This document shows positions 21,001 through 39,000 of a stretch of DNA of 64,000 nucleotides, in pieces. The position numbers were made by a program. Source of the DNA: Candidatus Latescibacterota bacterium. GTDB taxonomy: Bacteria > Latescibacterota > UBA2968 > UBA8231. The DNA is taken from the NCBI GenBank assembly GCA_965248355.1, contig OZ252098.1, positions 2,912,001 through 2,976,000 on the forward strand. The letters are read 5' to 3'. How positions within the stretch are numbered: position 1 is the first letter of the stretch; each line of letters begins with the position of its first letter.

Positions 21001-24000
21001 CGCGAGGTGTTGGCCGCGGCCCTGGAGGACGCCCGCGCGCGCCTGAACCGCGGGTGCCTCTACTACCAGACCAACGTGCTGCTGCCCTTTCACCCGCCGG
21101 GGCGGCCCCTCGTCGTCACCCATCACGCGCCCTTCGTCGACCACGTGGTCGAGGTCATGGGGGACCGCCTGGCCGCGGAGGCCTTCGGGGCCGGGCGCGC
21201 CAAGCTGGAGCACCTGCGGCACAGCCAGCGCATCGGACTGGACTGCCTGGTCCGCAGCCGCGGTTCCGCCGTGGAGATCTCGTCGATCCAGGCCGACTAC
21301 CTGCGGATGCACGGTGTGGAGCCTCGGTTCATCCACAGGATCTACCCACCCCTGGAGTGGCCCGACGGGGTGAACGGCCTCTCGCGGGAGGGTGCGCGTC
21401 TGCGGCGCTTCATCGCCGAGGCCGGCCCCCGGTTGGTCCTGTGCACGGCCTGCTCGCGGCTGGACGCCTTCAAGAACGTCGAACTCCTCGTGCAGGCCGC
21501 GTTGCGGCTGGTGAGGTCGGGTCTCGACCTGCGCGTGCTGATCATCGGGGGCCCCCCTCGGGATGGGGAGCGGCGGCGCCTGGAGAGACTGGTGGACGAG
21601 GGCCTGGCTCACCGTTTCCGCTTTGCCCCCAGGGTCCCGCGCGAAGACCTGGCCCGGGTGCTCGATGACCTGGCCGGCCGCGGCCTCTTCGTCTGTCCTT
21701 CCCGCTACGAGACTTGTGGTCTGACCCCCCTGGAGGCGGCGGCGCGGGGGGTGTGCACGTTGGTGGCGGACACGCCCGACAGGGTCGAGGCCGCGATCGC
21801 TGGTTCCGCCCCGGCACCGGTTCTCGCCCACGGTGGAGGGCCTTGGAGCCGCCGTGCGCCGAGTCGCCGAGCGACGGTCGGACCCTTGTTCGACGATCGG
21901 AGTCCTCGATGAGAACGCACAGGCCGGCAGCCGCGCCTTCGACGAGCTTGTTCATCGCGGCGTGGCTCCGGATCACGGCACCGGAGGTTCGCGGCAGACG
22001 CCTGCCGCGCCGGCAGCGACCGGCCAGAGCTCTCTCCGGAGCCGTCCCATCCCGCCTGAGAAGTCCACCATGCCCGGGGGCCGTTCCGCCCGCCTGGATC
22101 TGTCCACCCACTTCAACAACGCCGGCATCACCCCGGACGGGCGGCCGGGGGCCGGGGGCCTCGACGGGATGGGCACGGCCTTCCGCGCCGAGTGCCTCCC
22201 GGCCCCGGGGGGGACCATCGTCAGCGAGGAGACGCCCTTCCTCTTTCCGGGCCGGGACCGCGAGTCGAAGGACAACATCGCCTGCGAGGCCCAGGAGATC
22301 CCGTTGCCGCCGGGCGCCTGGGACGCCCTCCACGTGCTGGGCATGTGCGACTGGCGGGCCTTCGAGGAGCCCCTCCGGTTGAAGGCCCCCGACGGCACCT
22401 GCTTGGAGACGCGCCTGGGACTCAGCGACGCCCCGCGTTACCAGGGGCTTCAGTACGGAGAGAGCGTGGCTCTCTCGTGTCCACTGACGGCCCCCGATAC
22501 CTCGATTCCCCTTTCCTCCCTCATCGGGACCTCCCCGCCGGGAGCGGGTTACGAGATGAAGGAGACCCGCATCGAGGCGGGGATCTGGCACCAGGTGATC
22601 CACTTCCATGGGCCCCGGCCGCTATCGGGACTGGTGCTGCCGGACAACCCGTCCATGCACCTCTTCGCCTTGACCTTGGTCGCGGCGGACGAGGTCTCCC
22701 CATGAAGAAGCGCATCGACGGTATTCCCTTCTGCACCAACCGGCACTACAACTGTGTCTACGTGGTGCTCGACAGCCTGCTGCGCTTCCACGGCCACGAG
22801 CCCACCGTGCCCTGCTTTTCCAATTGGGACTTCGTCTACTCCCGGGATGGCGGGCCGTTCGCCATCCACGGCCGCGCCATCCCCCTTCCCAGGATGCTCA
22901 ACGCCTTCGGGATCGGACTGCTCAACCGCGGCGCGGCGGACGGGGAAGCCGCGTGGAAGGCCGTGAGAACGCTGATAGACGCGGATACCCCGGTGGCCGT
23001 CGGCGTCGACGTCTTCGCCCTCGCCCGGGCCGGCCTCTACCCCCGCCTGCGCCATGCCGACCACCAGTACATCGCCGCCGGGTACGACGACGAGGCGGGT
23101 ACCGTCCACCTGATCGATCCCTCCCCCTGGCAGCCTTGTGCACGGGACCTCCCCCTCGGCCTGTTCCTCGCCAGTTGGGACATGAGCGAGTTCTCCGGGG
23201 TACGGGACCGGTACAACTGGACCTGGCTGGAGGCGCCGGCGCCACGTCCCACCTTGCGCCGCGGCCCCATGCAGGCCCTCCTGCGGCGCAACCTCCGGAG
23301 CATGTCGGCCTCCAGCGGCCAGGGCGGTCTCGTCCTGGGCCTGGAGGGTATCGGACAGCTCGCCGAGGATGCCGGGGCCTGGGCGGCATACGAGGAGCCC
23401 TTCCTCAAAAAGCACTTGCGGCGGTGCGCCGAGCTCCTGCTGGAGATCGCCGTGCTCCGGGAGGGGCACGGCCACTTCCTGCGCCACCTGGGCCAGCTCT
23501 TCGACCGTCCCGCGCTGGCCGGCCTCGGCGGGGAACTCGAGGCGATCTCGCAGGGCTGGTTCGTCGTGAAGAACCTGTGCCTCAAGGGCGCCCTCAAGGA
23601 GCCGGCGAGCCTCCTGCCCCGCATTCAGTCCCGGCTCCACGACATCGAGGCCCGCGAACGGAAAGCCCTGGCGGGGCTGGCAGCGGCGGTGGAAGCGCCG
23701 GCCCGGCTTTGAAGTGTCACCTCCACGACGCATGGCTGACGCCGGACACACACAACTCGCCCGAGCCTCGACCGGGCCGCGCGGAGGCCGCAAGTCGTTG
23801 CCGTCCAGAACGCGCCGACCGCGCCGCCGGCCCTGGCACGGCCTTTGTATCGGACATGGGCGCCAGAGCATCCGCCCACCCACTCTCGCCGCGGAGACGC
23901 GCTGAATGAACATCGGCCTGATCGGTCACGGCTTCCGGCCCATCGCCGGGGGCCTGGAGCGCCCGCTTCGGGACTGCGCCGCCGGCCTCGCCCGGCGCGG

Positions 24001-36000: not shown

Positions 36001-39000
36001 GCTCCGGGCCGGGGATCTCGTCGCCGCCGATGCAGCCGCCCTCGAGGAGGAGGCGGAGTGAGTCCGCGTCTCAGGCGCCGTTGCCGAGTTGCCAGGGCCG
36101 CCGTGGTGCAGGGCCTCCGGTATCAGCTCCGCGGCAACCTGCCGCGCACCGCCCTCGCCTGTTTCGGGATCACCGTGGGCGCGGCGGGGCTTGTTGCGGT
36201 GCTGTCCGTGGGCGGCGGGCTCAGACGCCTGCTGATCTCGGACGCCCGGCAGGCGGGGGGCCATCTGAGCGTGATCATCGCGCCGCCGCCGGGCCCGGAG
36301 AGACGCGCCCCCCTGACTCTGGCGGATATCGATCGCATCGGACGGATTCCCGGCGTGGAAGCCGTGGTCCCCGAGACCAGCGCCCCGGGGCGGATAGGGG
36401 CCGGAGGGCGGCAGGTTCCGGCGCAGGTGCGGGGGGTCACACCGGAGTTCCTGTCCCGCCGCGACTGGGGGCTGGACAGGGGCCGGGGGATCGTCACCGA
36501 GGATGTGTACTCGTCGCGGCGAGTCTGCGTCCTCGGCCACTCCGTCGCCTCCCGGCTGTTCCCCGACGCGCAGAGGACGGACGGCGCCGTATCCATCGAT
36601 GGCCTGCGGTTCTCCGTGGCCGGGGTGCTGGAGCCACGCTCCCCTCGGGATCCGGGCGGCAACGACGTGGTGCTCGTCCCCATCACGACCTCCCTCGAGG
36701 CGCTCCGGATCCGGGAAGTCGGCAGGGCGACCGTTCAGGCCGCCCACGTGGAGGAGGTCCCCGCCATCGTCGAACGAATCAAGACGTGGCTGGCGCGGGA
36801 GCACCGATACGGCGAGGACTTCCGGGTCCGTTCGGCCGTCGCCGACGCCCAGGGCGCCGTCCGGGCCCTCCGGGGGATCGAGGTGTCGCTGGGGGCGTTG
36901 GCGGCGATCTGCCTCGGCCTCGGGGGCCTGGGCATCCTGAACGTCATGCTGGCCTCTCTCGATGAGCGCGTCTACGAGATGGGTCTGCGCTCGGCCATCG
37001 GGGCTCCCGGCCACGCCCTCCTGCTGCAGCTCCTGGCCGAGTCACTCGCCATGAACCTGGCGGGCTTCCTCCCGGGGATCGCCCTGGGCGCCGGGGTCTC
37101 GTCCTGCGTGGAGTGGTCCGTCTCCCTCTTCCTGCCCGGGGCTGACTTCCGCGCAGCCGTAACGGGCGAGGCCTTGCTGGCGGCCGGGCTGGCCTCGGGC
37201 GGGGTCGGCCTGCTGTCGGGGGTCTTCCCGGCTCTGCGCGCGGCGCGCATGAGCCCGGTGCAGGCCCTGAAGGAGACCTGAGAGGGAATGCGGAGTCTGC
37301 ACGCGGCGCCCATGGCCCTGGCGGCGATACGGCGGTTCCGCCTGAGGGCCGTCGTCGCGGTCGTCTCGGTGGCCATCGGAGTCGCAGCCATGGTGGCGAT
37401 CCAATCCTTCGGCGCCGCCATCCAGCGGCTGGTGATGGGCGAGCTCGGCAGGCTCGGGCTCGAAGGGCTGGTCCTGGTGCACCCCCGTCCGGCGCTGGCC
37501 CTGCAGGGGCCGGGGCCGATGCTGACCCTGCAGCAGGTGCGGGAGCTCGAACGCGGCGTGCCCGATCTCGACTACGTCGTGCCCATCTTGCATTTGGATC
37601 TCGAGATCCGGTCCGGAGGCCGCGGGACGTATGCCCGGGCCACGGGCACGGCACCCGACTACCGCCGGCTTCTCGGAGACAAGATGGCGGCGGGCCGGTT
37701 TCTCGACGAGACCGACGATCTGACTCGCCGCAGGGTCTGTGTCCTCGGCGCCGACCTGGCCAAGCGACTCCTGCGAGGCGGCCATCCCGTTGGACGGAAG
37801 GTCCTCCTGGCCGGCACCACCTACACGGTCGTGGGAGTGCTCGAGGGAAGGCGGTTGATGGATTCCGCCTGGGGCGACGAGCGGCTCATCATCCCCATCC
37901 GCACGCTGCAGAGCTTTCACGGGGGGCCGCCCGGGATCCACGCCATCCACGCATCCCTGGCGGCCGGTGCCGACGCTTCGAGAGCTCTGGCCGCGGTTCG
38001 TCGAGGGCTGGCCCGCGGCGGCGGCGGCCAGGACCTCGATCATTACGAGGTCATGAGCGGCCGGGAGGTGCTTCAGGACATCAACCAGGCCCTGATCGTG
38101 GCGCGCCTCGTGACGACGGCCATCGCCGGGATGGCCCTGCTCGTCGGGGCCGTGGGCGTCCTCAATACCATGCTCATCTCGGTGGAGCAGCGTGTCTGCG
38201 AGATCGGCCTTCGCAAGGCCCTTGGCGCCCGGCCGATGGCCCTCGTGAGCCAGTTTCTCACCGAGGCCGTGGTCCTGAGCTGCTGCGGGGGAGTACTGGG
38301 CCTGGCGCTGGGATGGGGGCTCGCCAGGGGCGGGGAGGCGGTGCTCTCCGGATGGCTCGGAACCTCCATGGCAGGGTCCACCGACTGGGGGACCGCGGGG
38401 CTCGCCCTCGCCGTCTCCCTGACCGTGGGCATCTGCTCCGGCGTCGTCCCCGCGGTTCAGGCCGCGGAACTCCCTCCCGCGGAGGCCATGAGGAATGCTG
38501 GTCGAGCTTGAATCCGCCTGCAAGGTCTACCGGAAGGGGCCGGAGCGGGTGCGCGCCCTGTGGGATGTCGACGCCGCCTTCGGCCCCGGAGAGTTCGTGG
38601 CCCTCATGGGTCCCTCCGGCTCCGGGAAGACGACGATGCTCAACATCATCGGCTGTCTCGACTACCTGACGGCGGGGAGGTATCTGCTGCAGGGAGAGGA
38701 TGTAACCGGCTTGAATCCCATCCGCCTCGCCGAGGTCCGAAGCCGGAAGATCGGGTTCGTCTTCCAGAGCTTTCACCTGCTGCCGAGGGCGACGGCCGCG
38801 GAGAACGTCGAGCTCCCCCGGATCTACGCGGGATCAAGCCGGCGCCAGCGCAGAGAGTGCGCCCACGCGGCCCTCGAACGAGTCGGACTGGCGGATCGCC
38901 GCGACTTCCGGCCGGAAGAGCTGTCCGGGGGCCAGCGGCAGCGAGTGGCCATCGCCAGGGCCCTGGTGAATGAACCCTCTCTCATTCTGGCCGATGAGCC

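Follow-up and report, generated by a model that had tools for sequence, protein, structure and literature searches.

Three tandem genes in the 64,000-nucleotide window analyzed here (the whole stretch, positions 2,912,001 to 2,976,000 of contig OZ252098.1 from a Candidatus Latescibacterota bacterium) most likely encode the precursors of hydrophobic hairpin peptides that would be stapled by cysteine pairs and exported following maturation by a protease/P-loop/carrier-protein system. Judged from sequence, the products are probably peptides of a bacteriocin- or microcin-like kind that depend on a leader, are processed, and leave the cell, with transporters dedicated to them, a reading strengthened by the presence of the leader on unrelated cores, by cysteine covariation, and by synteny combined with faster divergence of the precursors. 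The initial annotation had proposed a bacteriocin or RiPP locus of an undescribed type at 22070-37281 and listed GT4, BtrH_N/DUF4872, and TPR proteins, an ABC pair, an HlyB-like exporter, and an S8-TIGR04066 fusion as neighbors. All of these were found and the core reading stands, but the genus limit, the absence of enzymes, the borders, and the counts of relatives had to be revised. The conserved cluster is larger, extending over 20677-39471 from the GT4a gene, which in the congener G167 immediately follows a housekeeping radical SAM gene and thus sets the left border, to a previously overlooked acyl-carrier-like gene.

Features of the conserved cluster, with positions counted from the first nucleotide of the window
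Feature	Coordinates	Strand	Characteristics
GT4a, GT4-family glycosyltransferase	20677..21912	+	Pfam Glycos_transf_1 1.2e-14
p211, 211-aa AziU2-like protein	22070..22705	+	overlaps start of next gene
BtrH_N/DUF4872 papain-fold protein, AziU3-like	22702..23712	+	Pfam BtrH_N 2.9e-12
GT4b, GT4-family glycosyltransferase	23906..25111	+	Pfam Glycos_transf_1 1.6e-25, Glyco_transf_4
TPR protein	25126..26559	+	Pfam TPR_12, TPR_2; immediately 5' of precursors
Precursor A	26609..26836	+	75 aa: leader 1-22, 53-aa hydrophobic 4-Cys core
Precursor B	26951..27166	+	71 aa: leader 1-22, 49-aa 4-Cys core
Precursor C	27388..27609	+	73 aa: leader 1-22, 51-aa 4-Cys core
554-aa polytopic membrane protein	27684..29348	+	77-78% identical in congeners
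ABC ATPase, DrrA/lantibiotic-protection-like	29367..30134	+	TIGR01188 drrA 1.3e-59, TIGR03740 4.4e-44, both under cut-offs
MsbA/HlyB-like ABC exporter (fused TMD-NBD)	30125..31885	+	Pfam ABC_membrane, ABC_tran
147-aa single-pass membrane protein	31882..32325	+	N-terminal hydrophobic segment
Yip1/YknW-like membrane protein	32416..33189	+	Pfam Yip1 7.5e-8; NF052650 YknW_fam 3.8e-8, 33 bits (cut-off 110)
S8 subtilase-DUF1611/TIGR04066-like P-loop fusion, cytoplasmic	33189..35114	+	Peptidase_S8 2.7e-23, DUF1611_C 7.7e-13
HlyD/MacA-like periplasmic adaptor	35117..36061	+	HlyD_D23, HlyD_3; TIGR01730 7e-13
Two MacB-type FtsX permeases	36058-37281, 37288-38511	+	MacB_PCD and FtsX in each
MacB/LolD-type ABC ATPase	38495..39208	+	ABC_tran; MacB 1.2e-70; DarD 3e-62
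Acyl-carrier-like protein, 88 aa	39205..39471	+	conserved DS motif; right end of cluster

The three co-oriented precursor genes were confirmed at their annotated positions and lengths. Their products share a polar N-terminus, and the C-termini are divergent, very hydrophobic, and Cys-bearing (GRAVY 1.0-1.6, net charge -1 to 0 for the cores). Precursors B and C are 55% and 53% identical to A, and an alignment of the three, with almost no variation in residues 1-23 and with C26, C35, and C60 invariant, agrees with the shared leader and variable hydrophobic cores described initially. The near-identical ribosome-binding regions were also recovered: GGAAGGAGATCCATC-ATG precedes each gene, and approximately 70 nt of upstream sequence together with the leader-coding part reach 91% mean column identity. 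A leader hidden Markov model (HMM) searched against all 77,413 stop-to-stop ORFs of the genome matched only precursors A-C at E<1, which excludes chance as an explanation for the trio. An NCBIfam search matched the precursors to no family, as had been reported, and their sequences contain no double-glycine site.

A profile search with 179 scored candidates delineated a precursor family of 46 protein clusters, replacing an earlier count of 17 relatives, none named; two of the 46 carry a name, solely "hypothetical protein" of a Gemmatimonadaceae MAG. Mean pairwise identity among the 46 sequences is 78.5% for the leader versus 41.9% for the core; the values previously derived from 18 members were 84% and 42%. 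Of the three cysteines regarded as conserved, C35 and C60 are indeed nearly universal (45/46 each), but C26 is present in only 35/46. Two congeners, G160 and G167, match the cluster in synteny over its full length and have four precursors apiece; between congeners, precursors are 41-75% and enzymes 71-94% identical, compared with the 73-94% and three or four precursors given earlier. Tandem copies number 3-4, some of them degenerate. The close family, found in 4/10 genomes of the genus, fits the original description as genus-restricted, but relatives of the two-Cys hairpin type, with clusters built in the same way, are found in other genera and records (L020, L025-L028, and L072) and the leader also precedes other cores. 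The family is therefore not strictly genus-restricted and forms a single branch within a broader set of peptides defined by the leader.

At the level of sequence, the N-terminal 22 residues (M-x-x-L-x-K-P-x-K-Q-S-Y-T-G-E-D-x-Q-V-L-A-Y) behave as a modular leader, of a type that several unrelated core classes share across the bacterial family. The motif L-x-K-P-x-K/R ... A-Y heads such cores next to relatives of the S8-DUF1611 gene: across 79 related loci, it was detected at 35 of 20,640 ORF starts that run in the direction of the S8 gene, a count that is no independent test, because the expression was composed after some sequences had been seen; the controls gave 0/18,416 on the opposite strand and 1 in shuffled sequences. 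The motif-headed cores include hydrophobic hairpins, short Cys-rich, acidic Cys, and long Pro/Thr-rich types, and the leader type is common to at least five core classes besides the hairpin family of the window. The narrow leader HMM did not extend to the other classes, giving E values of 0.003-0.02 (L060/L062) and 2.6 (L025/L028) and missing L029-type precursors. Clades of the S8-DUF1611 protein track the precursor classes.

We propose that the S8 protease, fused to the DUF1611/TIGR04066-like P-loop domain and working with the small acyl carrier protein (ACP), recognizes the leader in the cytoplasm and would remove it by a cut, probably after Tyr22 (between V-L-A-Y and S). The placement of this site rests on the P4/P1 preference shown by subtilisins. 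The fusion protein, which scores 125 bits against QhpE (cut-off 165) and 110 bits against TIGR04066 (cut-off 200) in NCBIfam, has D20, H60, and S204 as well as the Walker A sequence GTSSQQGKFT invariant in 26/26 sequences, and no signal peptide is visible in its sequence. Such fusions are encoded in 48/76 genomes of the host's bacterial family, and in most cases a small ACP and an exporter of the MsbA/HlyB-like type accompany them; a comparable exporter gene lies upstream in 52/78 loci and an orthologous ACP gene directly 3' in 58-59/79. Both the ACP gene, whose product matches NCBIfam ACP models to E 1e-8, under their cut-offs, and the P-loop DUF1611 domain belong to the system. The 49-53-aa cores would then leave through the MsbA/HlyB-like transporter, which has no C39 domain, its NCBIfam alignments to peptidase-bearing families starting at model positions 137-154, past the peptidase domain. 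The 147-aa protein, without a Pfam or NCBIfam family, follows the exporter in the close relatives L021-L024 (76-82% identity) and in G160 and G167, is weakly conserved in the distant L026, L028, and L031 (30-33%), and may serve the exporter as a small adaptor.

The AF2 model of the precursor contains 2 helices, 15-44 and 51-72 (pLDDT 82). Within the family, C26 is accompanied by a fourth cysteine at column 69 or 73 in 34/35 sequences, compared with 0/11 sequences with S26, a covariation that spans only about two S26 lineages and hence few independent events; the two alternative positions are spaced i and i+4 and thus lie on the same helix face. All 6 distant hairpin precursors keep exactly one cysteine at either end of the core, the first just past A-Y and the second C-terminal. 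This pattern, the covariation, and the modeled helical hairpin suggest nested Cys-Cys staples: the cores would fold as helix-turn-helix, in which C35 and C60 form the inner link and C26 pairs with C71 or C67 in the outer one. Covariation backs the pairing, and the links would be disulfides; related hairpin clusters contain thioredoxin-fold and MauE/DoxX genes. Alternatively, the products might be small proteins that cross the inner membrane twice and remain in the producer, perhaps as subunits with an accessory or regulatory role in the neighboring transporters, with the N-terminus serving as an uncleaved cytoplasmic docking segment. The high GRAVY values, two predicted helices of transmembrane length, best fold matches to transmembrane hairpins (CyoD, at a nonsignificant E of 1.4), and location among five membrane transporter genes are compatible with this; neutral-to-anionic cores could equally be two transmembrane helices in the cell's own membrane, and leader cleavage is a prediction. 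We nevertheless consider it unlikely, given that the same N-terminal motif occurs on soluble, acidic, or Pro/Thr-rich cores that could not form membrane hairpins, that the constant partner is a protease with an intact triad, that structural subunits would rarely diverge so fast in the core or come as 3-4 tandem copies, some of them degenerate, and that covarying cysteine pairs indicate an oxidizing compartment.

Exported peptides of this kind may be modified further by an AziU2/AziU3-like pair, the ACP, and the two GT4 enzymes. p211 gave no match in Pfam or NCBIfam; its AF2 model (pLDDT 62.5) matched AziU2/U3 (7wuw, 8gs1) in Foldseek at E 2e-11 and TM 0.65-0.72, and its profile (A6) matched AziU2/Azi28 in the PDB at E 1e-19. 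The adjacent BtrH_N protein (DUF4872 3.5e-6, slightly under the cut-off; profile A7 to AziU3/Azi29 at E 1e-6) has C11, C18, H118, H121, and D139 invariant in 12/12 homologs. The two are homologs of the AziU2/AziU3 pair; candidate tailoring enzymes thus exist, and with the ACP and the P-loop DUF1611 domain also in the system, the earlier statement that no recognized modifying enzyme is present was too strong. GT4a is kept in G160 and G167 at 77-78% identity. In G160, GT4b is truncated to residues 1-159 and 366-394 while the remainder of the cluster is intact, and L025-L028 had no GT4 or p211/BtrH match within the fetched flanks, so the tailoring genes may be expendable or have no connection with the peptides. 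Polysaccharide enzymes make up most of the GT4 family, and one could envisage a chance juxtaposition, in which only the precursors and exporter form a unit and GT4, the AziU2/U3-like pair, and the MacB module serve unrelated envelope or polysaccharide functions. We find this improbable: the p211 and BtrH genes immediately follow S8-ACP in 12/78 loci (53-68% identity), glycosyltransferases of three families adjoin S8-DUF1611 genes in L025, L029, and L088, gene overlaps (22702/22705, 33189, and 39205/39208) tie the modules into one transcription/translation unit, and the entire block is syntenic in both congeners.

The ABC-2-type pair just 3' of the precursors and the Yip1/MacA/MacB (YknWXYZ-like) module probably protect the producer, which would imply a membrane-active, bacteriocin- or microcin-like product. 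The 554-aa protein, for which Pfam gave nothing, is the probable permease of the ATPase encoded by the next gene, a lead from its nearest ESM Atlas clusters (score 0.98), in which PF16949 ABC_tran_2 or 12TM_1 is annotated on 11-32% of members. In 7/78 related loci, all hairpin-type, and likewise at L020, the gene before the precursors encodes a TPR protein; only 7 loci, again hairpin-type, combine it with ABC-2 ATPase and Yip1 genes. L030 and L071, neither of them hairpin-type, also have FtsX genes, there on the opposite strand. If the processed peptides were instead signals (pheromones or quorum cues) or surface/structural peptides, the extra transporters would serve export or uptake rather than immunity. 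The noncationic cores fit this view, as do a substrate-binding protein, histidine kinase, and sigma-54 response regulator following S8-DUF1611 at L029, L032, and L050, and an AraC-type regulator at L025 and L088. We give it little credence, because Pfam and NCBIfam reveal no sensor or regulator gene in the window cluster, the ABC-2 ATPase, Yip1, and MacB-type FtsX genes occur in only 10/78 loci each, mostly with the hydrophobic hairpin class, and peptides of approximately 50 aa with GRAVY >1 would make poor diffusible signals. Moreover, L022 has lost the left half including the precursors yet retains the genes from the 554-aa protein to the ACP, and orphan transporter halves surviving without precursors are common for immunity genes.

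Several known systems resemble parts of the cluster. In quinohemoprotein amine dehydrogenase maturation, the cytoplasmic subtilase QhpE removes the QhpC leader and QhpF is an MsbA-like ABC exporter; QhpE is the best, below-cut-off NCBIfam match of the protease domain, and the predicted order of leader cleavage followed by MsbA-like export is the same, but the window cluster lacks the QhpD radical SAM enzyme and dehydrogenase subunits and has an unrelated substrate. Glycocins (sublancin, glycocin F) are helix-loop-helix peptides with two nested Cys-Cys links and glycosyltransferase genes in their clusters, resembling the predicted fold and pairing; they are, however, amphipathic, carry a double-glycine leader, and depend on a SunS-type GT2 enzyme and export by a C39-ABC protein, whereas the window has GT4 enzymes, a leader ending in A-Y, no C39, and strongly hydrophobic cores, whose glycosylation is hypothetical. 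YknWXYZ of Bacillus subtilis protects against the SDP peptide toxin. Like YknWXYZ/MacAB, the window module comprises a Yip1/YknW-like protein, an HlyD-type adaptor, FtsX/MacB permeases, and a LolD/MacB-type ATPase, but the YknW score is far below its cut-off, there are two permease genes, the S8-DUF1611 gene interrupts the module, and the host is diderm. AziU2/U3, BtrH, AsbE, and CtaG form one fold group according to excerpts of PMC12865890. Resembling AziU2/AziU3 of azinomycin B biosynthesis and the BtrH/AsbE/CtaG papain-fold transacylases, the window pair has invariant Cys, His, and Asp residues, in the BtrH_N/DUF4872 protein, and a carrier protein encoded nearby. All of these act on small-molecule or carrier-bound, non-ribosomal substrates, whereas their homologs here lie in a ribosomal-peptide cluster, in which Pfam and NCBIfam found no sulfotransferase or amino-group carrier protein; the AziU2/AziU3 reaction cannot be transferred to the window pair by homology.

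A further parallel in gene content is provided by Firmicute clusters for which excerpts of PMC4573289 and PMC10731318 list TIGR04066, the ACP-related TIGR04069, a subtilase, and an ABC transporter together. As in those excerpts, the window has a subtilase, a TIGR04066/DUF1611-type protein, a small ACP-like protein, an MsbA-type ABC exporter, and adjoining small Cys-bearing precursors. It differs from the clusters as described there in that subtilase and TIGR04066-like protein are one polypeptide, scores for TIGR04066 and TIGR04069 are under the cut-offs, the family-less precursors have long hydrophobic hairpin cores, and a radical SAM maturase is absent, the sole radical SAM protein of the window being a PA0069-family member outside the conserved block. 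The protease/P-loop/carrier-protein maturation system to which the precursors would belong is little studied, and it is common across the host's bacterial family.

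Codon-position G+C and translations were used to map the genes of the window, which has a G+C content of approximately 70%, and families were assigned with Pfam and NCBIfam. The genes of the cluster are co-directional and often overlap; 3 of them, namely the gene for the S8 subtilase fused to a DUF1611/TIGR04066-like domain (the fusion), the small acyl carrier protein (ACP) gene and the ABC exporter gene, are referred to below as the platform, and L numbers denote related loci around such fusions in other genomes. The 554-aa membrane protein lies near ESM Atlas clusters where the family name “putative ABC exporter” is found on a minority of members, which we take as a lead only.

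Genes of the cluster, with their positions in the window
Gene	Position	Strand	Basis
GT4 glycosyltransferase GT4a	20677-21912	+	
211-aa protein (p211)	22070-22705	+	
BtrH_N/DUF4872 protein	22702-23712	+	
GT4 glycosyltransferase GT4b	23906-25111	+	
TPR protein	25126-26559	+	
Three small genes	26609-27609	+	
554-aa membrane protein	27684-29348	+	
DrrA-like ABC ATPase	29367-30134	+	
MsbA/HlyB-like ABC exporter without peptidase domain	30125-31885	+	
147-aa single-pass protein	31882-32325	+	
Yip1/YknW-like protein	32416-33189	+	
S8 subtilase fused to DUF1611/TIGR04066-like domain	33189-35114	+	
HlyD-type adaptor	35117-36061	+	
Two MacB-type permeases	36058-38511	+	
MacB-type ATPase	38495-39208	+	
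88-aa acyl-carrier-like protein, newly recognised here	39205-39471	+	NCBIfam and translation

A radical SAM (rSAM) gene at 14841-16049, 6 kb upstream of the cluster, was ruled out as a missing maturase, since it is a PA0069-family gene (480 bits) situated beyond the conserved block; because of this affiliation, and because it directly adjoins GT4a in the congener G167, we regard it as the left border. Two paralogous genes without a family match (18172-19101 and 19237-20250) lie between the PA0069-type rSAM/redoxin genes and GT4a; both are present in the congener G160 and absent from the same place in G167, and weak relatives (30% to 36%) occur in the platform loci L030 and L034. Immediately to the right of the cluster, an island of low G+C (0.51-0.61; 39642-42855) holds a 181-aa ORF and a 548-aa AAA_21/AAA_15 ATPase on the minus strand and an IS3-type transposase (rve, HTH_21) on the plus strand, and may represent a mobile defence-like pair. 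A 1095-aa protein with multihaem-cytochrome-like and TPR matches is encoded at 45049-48336 on the minus strand. The terminator scan returned 3 hairpin-plus-T sites against 0.7 expected, all within coding sequence and hence not interpretable, and the accompanying scan found no sigma-70-like promoter.

The 3 small tandem genes, which the initial annotation had called precursors of a new, genus-restricted peptide family, proved to be real plus-strand ORFs of 75, 71 and 73 aa (precursors A, B and C) with a shared leader, B and C being 55% and 53% identical to A. Positions 1-23 are almost invariant, and the 3 proteins further share C26, E27, W30, C35, C60 and a C-terminal G-Y-I. Each gene is preceded by GGAAGGAGATCCATC-ATG, and approximately 70 nt of upstream sequence together with the leader-coding part align with a mean column identity of 91%. 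Across the whole 5.5-Mb genome (77,413 stop-to-stop ORFs), the leader hidden Markov model (HMM) recovered only these 3 precursors at E<1. None has a credible NCBIfam match at E≤0.01, the single listed one, between precursor B and IolN (an inositol enzyme), reaching 16.5 bits with a cut-off of 245.

Profile searching across 5.8 billion proteins scored 179 candidates and yielded 46 clusters (66-75 aa), in which no name occurs other than “hypothetical protein,” from a Gemmatimonadaceae MAG, and an exhaustive HMM search of 1.84 billion representatives gave 11 proteins at E≤0.001. Precursor matches were found in 5 of the 168 genomes of the phylum set, that is, in the genome of the window, in 3 of 9 congeners and, weakly, in another genus. 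Mean pairwise identity over the 46 sequences is 78.5% in columns 1-23 and 41.9% in the remainder. In G160 and G167, synteny extends over the entire stretch between GT4a and the MacB ATPase, with protein identities of 71% to 94%; each of these genomes carries 4 precursor genes that are merely 41% to 75% identical to those of the window. Two degenerate precursor copies, P0049 (G160:C105:160203-160340) and P0050 (G166:C310:601-738), retain the leader (profile positions 1-45), followed by an unrelated Pro/Arg-rich tail, and are probably frameshifted. In G160 (L018/L019), GT4b is reduced to residues 1-159 and 366-394, the other cluster genes being intact, and in L021, the G167 contig, the second MacB-type permease gene is split by an insertion of approximately 5.3 kb (around 14100-20600). 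The records of L021 and L024 bear differing phylum labels (Ca. Latescibacterota versus Gemmatimonadaceae) and both are placed in the genus of the window; the title labels of these MAGs are therefore unreliable.

The fusion is by no means rare. Its C-terminal half is matched by at least 432 proteins, most of which are S8-DUF1611 fusions as well, and a scan of species genomes located 78 fusion loci. It occurs in 48 of 76 genomes and 13 of 18 genera of the GTDB family to which the window belongs, in up to 5 copies (1 in the genome of the window). An MsbA/HlyB-like exporter gene lies upstream on the same strand in 52 of the 78 loci (50 of the 64 having at least 4 kb of upstream sequence), and a small ACP gene directly 3' of the fusion in 58-59 of 79; the 3 small ACPs tested from related loci gave ACP matches at E 1e-13 to 1e-17. 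The Walker A motif of the DUF1611 part, GTSSQQGKFT, is invariant in all 26 aligned fusions. DUF1611 is presumably linked to an N-acetyltransferase (DgcN); compared with PDB sequences, the domain gave a weak match alone (2g0t, E 0.2).

Small ORFs co-oriented with the fusion share an N-terminal pattern with the precursors of the window, L-x-K-P-x-K/R followed after 4-14 residues by A/T/E-Y/F. Clustering of small ORFs was limited to intergenic ones, an all-against-all comparison being swamped by off-frame ORFs inside conserved genes. Written as a regular expression, the pattern matched 35 of 20,640 ORF starts on the S8 strand (approximately 32 distinct ORFs in 23 loci, 2 doubtful), none of the 18,416 on the opposite strand and 1 in controls with shuffled residues, counts that are descriptive and no independent test because the expression was written after some members had been seen; it also recovered precursor classes unseen at that point. 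The narrow family leader HMM fell short of the other classes (L060 and L062 scored E 0.003-0.02, L025 and L028 E 2.6), so that the tie between the leader of the window and those classes is one of motif, not of profile. At least 6 mutually unrelated core classes stand under the one leader motif, among them hydrophobic hairpins (the family of the window, L020, L025-L028 and L072), Cys-rich tails of 20-25 residues ending in CC (L029, L032, L050 and L066), acidic, Cys-containing cores (L085 and L088-L090) and Pro/Thr-rich cores of approximately 110 residues (L037, L039, L042, L055 and L073). Compared with NCBIfam, 13 diverse related precursors had no meaningful match at E≤1, and 5 short Cys-rich ones had none. 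In a FastTree phylogeny of 73 fusion proteins (midpoint root, without support values), each precursor class occupies its own part of the tree, in separate clades.

The combination of a single leader type with many unrelated cores, invariably next to one protease family, marks leader-guided maturation, in which the N-terminus would act as a modular leader. The same arrangement is hard to reconcile with the alternative that the products are small membrane proteins. The finding is best accounted for by a leader-dependent, protease-processed and exported peptide system, a reading that we consider fairly probable; the family in the window would be one branch, hydrophobic and Cys-stapled, of a larger leader-defined set that typifies the bacterial family. 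Restriction to the genus applies to the close precursor family, but not to the set to which it belongs.

Other parts of this set have neighbourhoods of their own. In L088 (12973-21751), L090 (12886-17948), L038, L050 and L061, leader-bearing precursors alternate with genes for DUF5128 six-bladed beta-propellers in cassettes of precursor and propeller. At loci with short Cys-rich precursors (L029:12022-17212, L032:12080-17280 and L050:17008-20715), the fusion is followed by an Opp/NikA-like binding protein and a histidine kinase; a sigma-54 response regulator comes next in L029 and L032, and the next ORF of L050 reaches the end of the fetched stretch. This gene content hints at a signalling role for the short Cys-rich class.

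The nearest catalogued system, as described in the available excerpts of 2 reports (PMC4573289, PMC10731318), is a Firmicute set comprising TIGR04066, the ACP-related TIGR04069, the radical SAM protein TIGR04068, a subtilase and an ABC exporter. Judged by these excerpts, its non-rSAM parts appear to have counterparts in the cluster studied here, which contains an S8 domain, an ABC exporter and a gene for an ACP-like protein, whereas the cluster fuses 2 of the parts, is without a maturase, stays below the family cut-offs and has different precursors. TIGR04066 scored 110 bits against residues 275-612 of the fusion (cut-off 200), and TIGR04069 was reached by the relative L025 alone (E 0.012), not by the protein of the window. 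Radical_SAM had no match among the 18 cluster proteins (Pfam and NCBIfam), and neither did TIGR04065, the catalogued Cys-rich precursor family, among precursors A-C. The earlier reading of a RiPP or bacteriocin locus of an undescribed class is supported in its core.

Other classes are more remote. The LanB/LanC/LanM, radical SAM/SPASM and YcaO proteins of lanthipeptides, sactipeptides/ranthipeptides and YcaO RiPPs, respectively, had no match among the 18 cluster proteins in the Pfam and NCBIfam scans. Glycocins need a GT2 SunS-type S/O-glycosyltransferase, whereas both transferases in the window are GT4 (Glycos_transf_1/Glyco_transf_4); 2 nested disulfides joining 2 helices, as in glycocins, would be consistent with the way C26 covaries with C67/C71, with the conservation of C35 and C60, and with the hairpin predicted by AlphaFold2. 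Double-glycine bacteriocins and class II microcins differ in their leader, which here ends in A-Y-S/A without GG, and the exporter is without a C39 domain, because peptidase-bearing models align only from position 137-154 onward. Circular bacteriocins, which undergo head-to-tail ligation, are set apart by the lack of a DUF95/SpoIIM-type Pfam match in the cluster, and QhpE subtilases (NF049966) by a score of 125 bits against a cut-off of 165 and the missing rSAM partner. We found no description of the platform or of the leader in the literature, supplementary files aside.

The cluster had been said to hold no recognised modifying enzyme, which is correct for LanB/LanC/LanM, radical SAM and YcaO but overlooks homologues of AziU2 and AziU3. 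The p211 protein has no Pfam or NCBIfam family match, and its ESM Atlas clusters are all unnamed. Its structural model (pLDDT 62.5) aligns in Foldseek with the AziU2/U3 crystal structures (E 2e-11, TM 0.65-0.72), and a profile of 14 homologues (A6) matches AziU2/Azi28 at E 1e-19; the profile of the BtrH_N/DUF4872 protein (A7) matches AziU3/Azi29 at E 1e-6. With sequence and fold homology for both subunits and genes that lie side by side, overlapping at 22702/22705, the pair falls within the AziU2/AziU3 family. AziU3/U2 forms an aziridine on a sulfated, carrier-bound intermediate; neither a sulfotransferase nor a LysW-type carrier was detected in the cluster with Pfam and NCBIfam. In the available part of one study (PMC12865890), AziU2/U3 is named an aziridine-forming enzyme and grouped with BtrH, AsbE and CtaG, transacylases that depend on a carrier protein and possess a Cys-His-Asp triad. 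C11, C18, H118, H121 and D139 of the BtrH_N/DUF4872 protein are invariant in 12 of 12 sequences. A pair of this type directly follows the S8 and ACP genes in 12 of the 78 loci, at 53% to 68% identity (in L038 the order is fusion, ACP, AziU2-like, AziU3-like), and in L025, L029 and L088 the fusion again has glycosyltransferase genes as neighbours, the types being GT4, GT2 and GT28. Given this homology, the recurring pair, the Walker A motif and the recurring glycosyltransferases, carrier-protein-dependent modification and glycosylation of the peptides are plausible. Tailoring may be optional, p211 and the BtrH_N/DUF4872 protein having no match within the fetched flanks of L025-L028 and GT4b being truncated in G160.

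The leader ends in V/I-L/V-A-Y-S/A in all 46 family members, again without GG, and in other classes in A-Y, E-Y, E-F or T-Y, the residues after it being polar or acidic. Subtilisins favour a hydrophobic P4 and an aromatic P1 residue. The protease domain starts at residue 1 of the fusion, with no signal peptide, and Asp20, His60 and Ser204 are invariant in the 26 aligned fusions. Because the leader end suits subtilisins, the triad is invariant and a signal peptide is missing, we propose that the S8 domain would cut the leader in the cytoplasm after Tyr22. The cores so released would comprise 53, 49 and 51 residues, with GRAVY values of 1.0-1.6, net charges of -1, 0 and -1 and predicted masses of 5.1-5.35 kDa. 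AlphaFold2, run on the 46-sequence alignment, predicts 2 helices (15-44 and 51-72; mean pLDDT 82), and Foldseek found no match of the precursor model in the PDB at E≤0.001.

Of the 46 sequences, 45 have C35 and 45 have C60. C26 occurs in 35, of which 34 carry a fourth Cys at column 73 (residue 71) or column 69 (residue 67), one helical turn apart, and the fourth Cys is absent from all 11 Ser26 sequences, a covariation that amounts to few independent events because the S26 forms come from approximately 2 lineages. Adding up the residue numbers gives 93-97 for 35+60 and 26+71 (or 26+67), which is what partners across a hairpin turning near 45-50 should show. Six distant hairpin precursors have exactly 2 Cys each, one right after the leader and the other at the C-terminal end, and related hairpin clusters contain a thioredoxin-fold gene (L025 and L072) and a MauE/DoxX gene (L025). 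We read these positions as a putative outer link joining both ends of the core, to which the family in the window would add an inner one; such links are probably disulfides made after export.

The ABC-2-type ATPase, Yip1 and MacB-type genes each occur in only 10 of the 78 loci, and the combination of TPR protein, ABC-2 ATPase and Yip1 is seen in only 7 loci, all hairpin-type. L030 and L071 likewise have MacB-type modules, on the opposite strand. In L022, the left half of the cluster (GT4a to the precursors) is replaced, and the part that begins with the 554-aa permease gene and ends with the ACP gene is kept; a 218-nt rSAM gene remnant and unrelated ORFs precede the permease gene there (L022:1-4700). 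In its list of parts, the Yip1, adaptor, FtsX and ATPase set of the window resembles YknWXYZ, a system that shields B. subtilis against a hydrophobic peptide toxin. Of the YknWXYZ/MacAB-type domains, HlyD, MacB_PCD/FtsX (2 copies) and the ATPase are clear, and YknW_fam reaches 33 bits against a cut-off of 110. As indirect evidence, the transporter pattern fits self-protection against a membrane-active product.

A more specific scheme, which we offer tentatively and give a fair chance, though well below even, is an undescribed RiPP class in which a family-wide leader (L-x-K-P ... A-Y) directs precursors to the protease-P-loop fusion and the ACP, joined here by the AziU2/AziU3-like pair and the GT4 enzymes. 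The leader would be cut, the N-terminus or a side chain would be modified by carrier-dependent acyl or aminoacyl transfer or ring closure, and a tailored hairpin with Cys staples and activity on membranes would result. If true, thiotemplate chemistry, known only from non-ribosomal pathways, would be brought onto a ribosomal peptide.

Soil and water abound in Gemmatimonadota and their relatives, from which almost no peptide natural products have been characterised. The analysis ties one of their clusters to a maturation platform of S8 protease-DUF1611 fusion, ACP and ABC exporter, suggests a possible function for the uncharacterised TIGR04066/TIGR04069 pair and places AziU2/AziU3-type enzymes in a ribosomal-peptide context, the first such case as far as we found. 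Leader motif and platform together provide a concrete genome-mining rule for precursor classes that NCBIfam does not catch. If active, hairpins with predicted nested Cys links and 3 dedicated transporters would constitute an unusual type of diderm bacteriocin.
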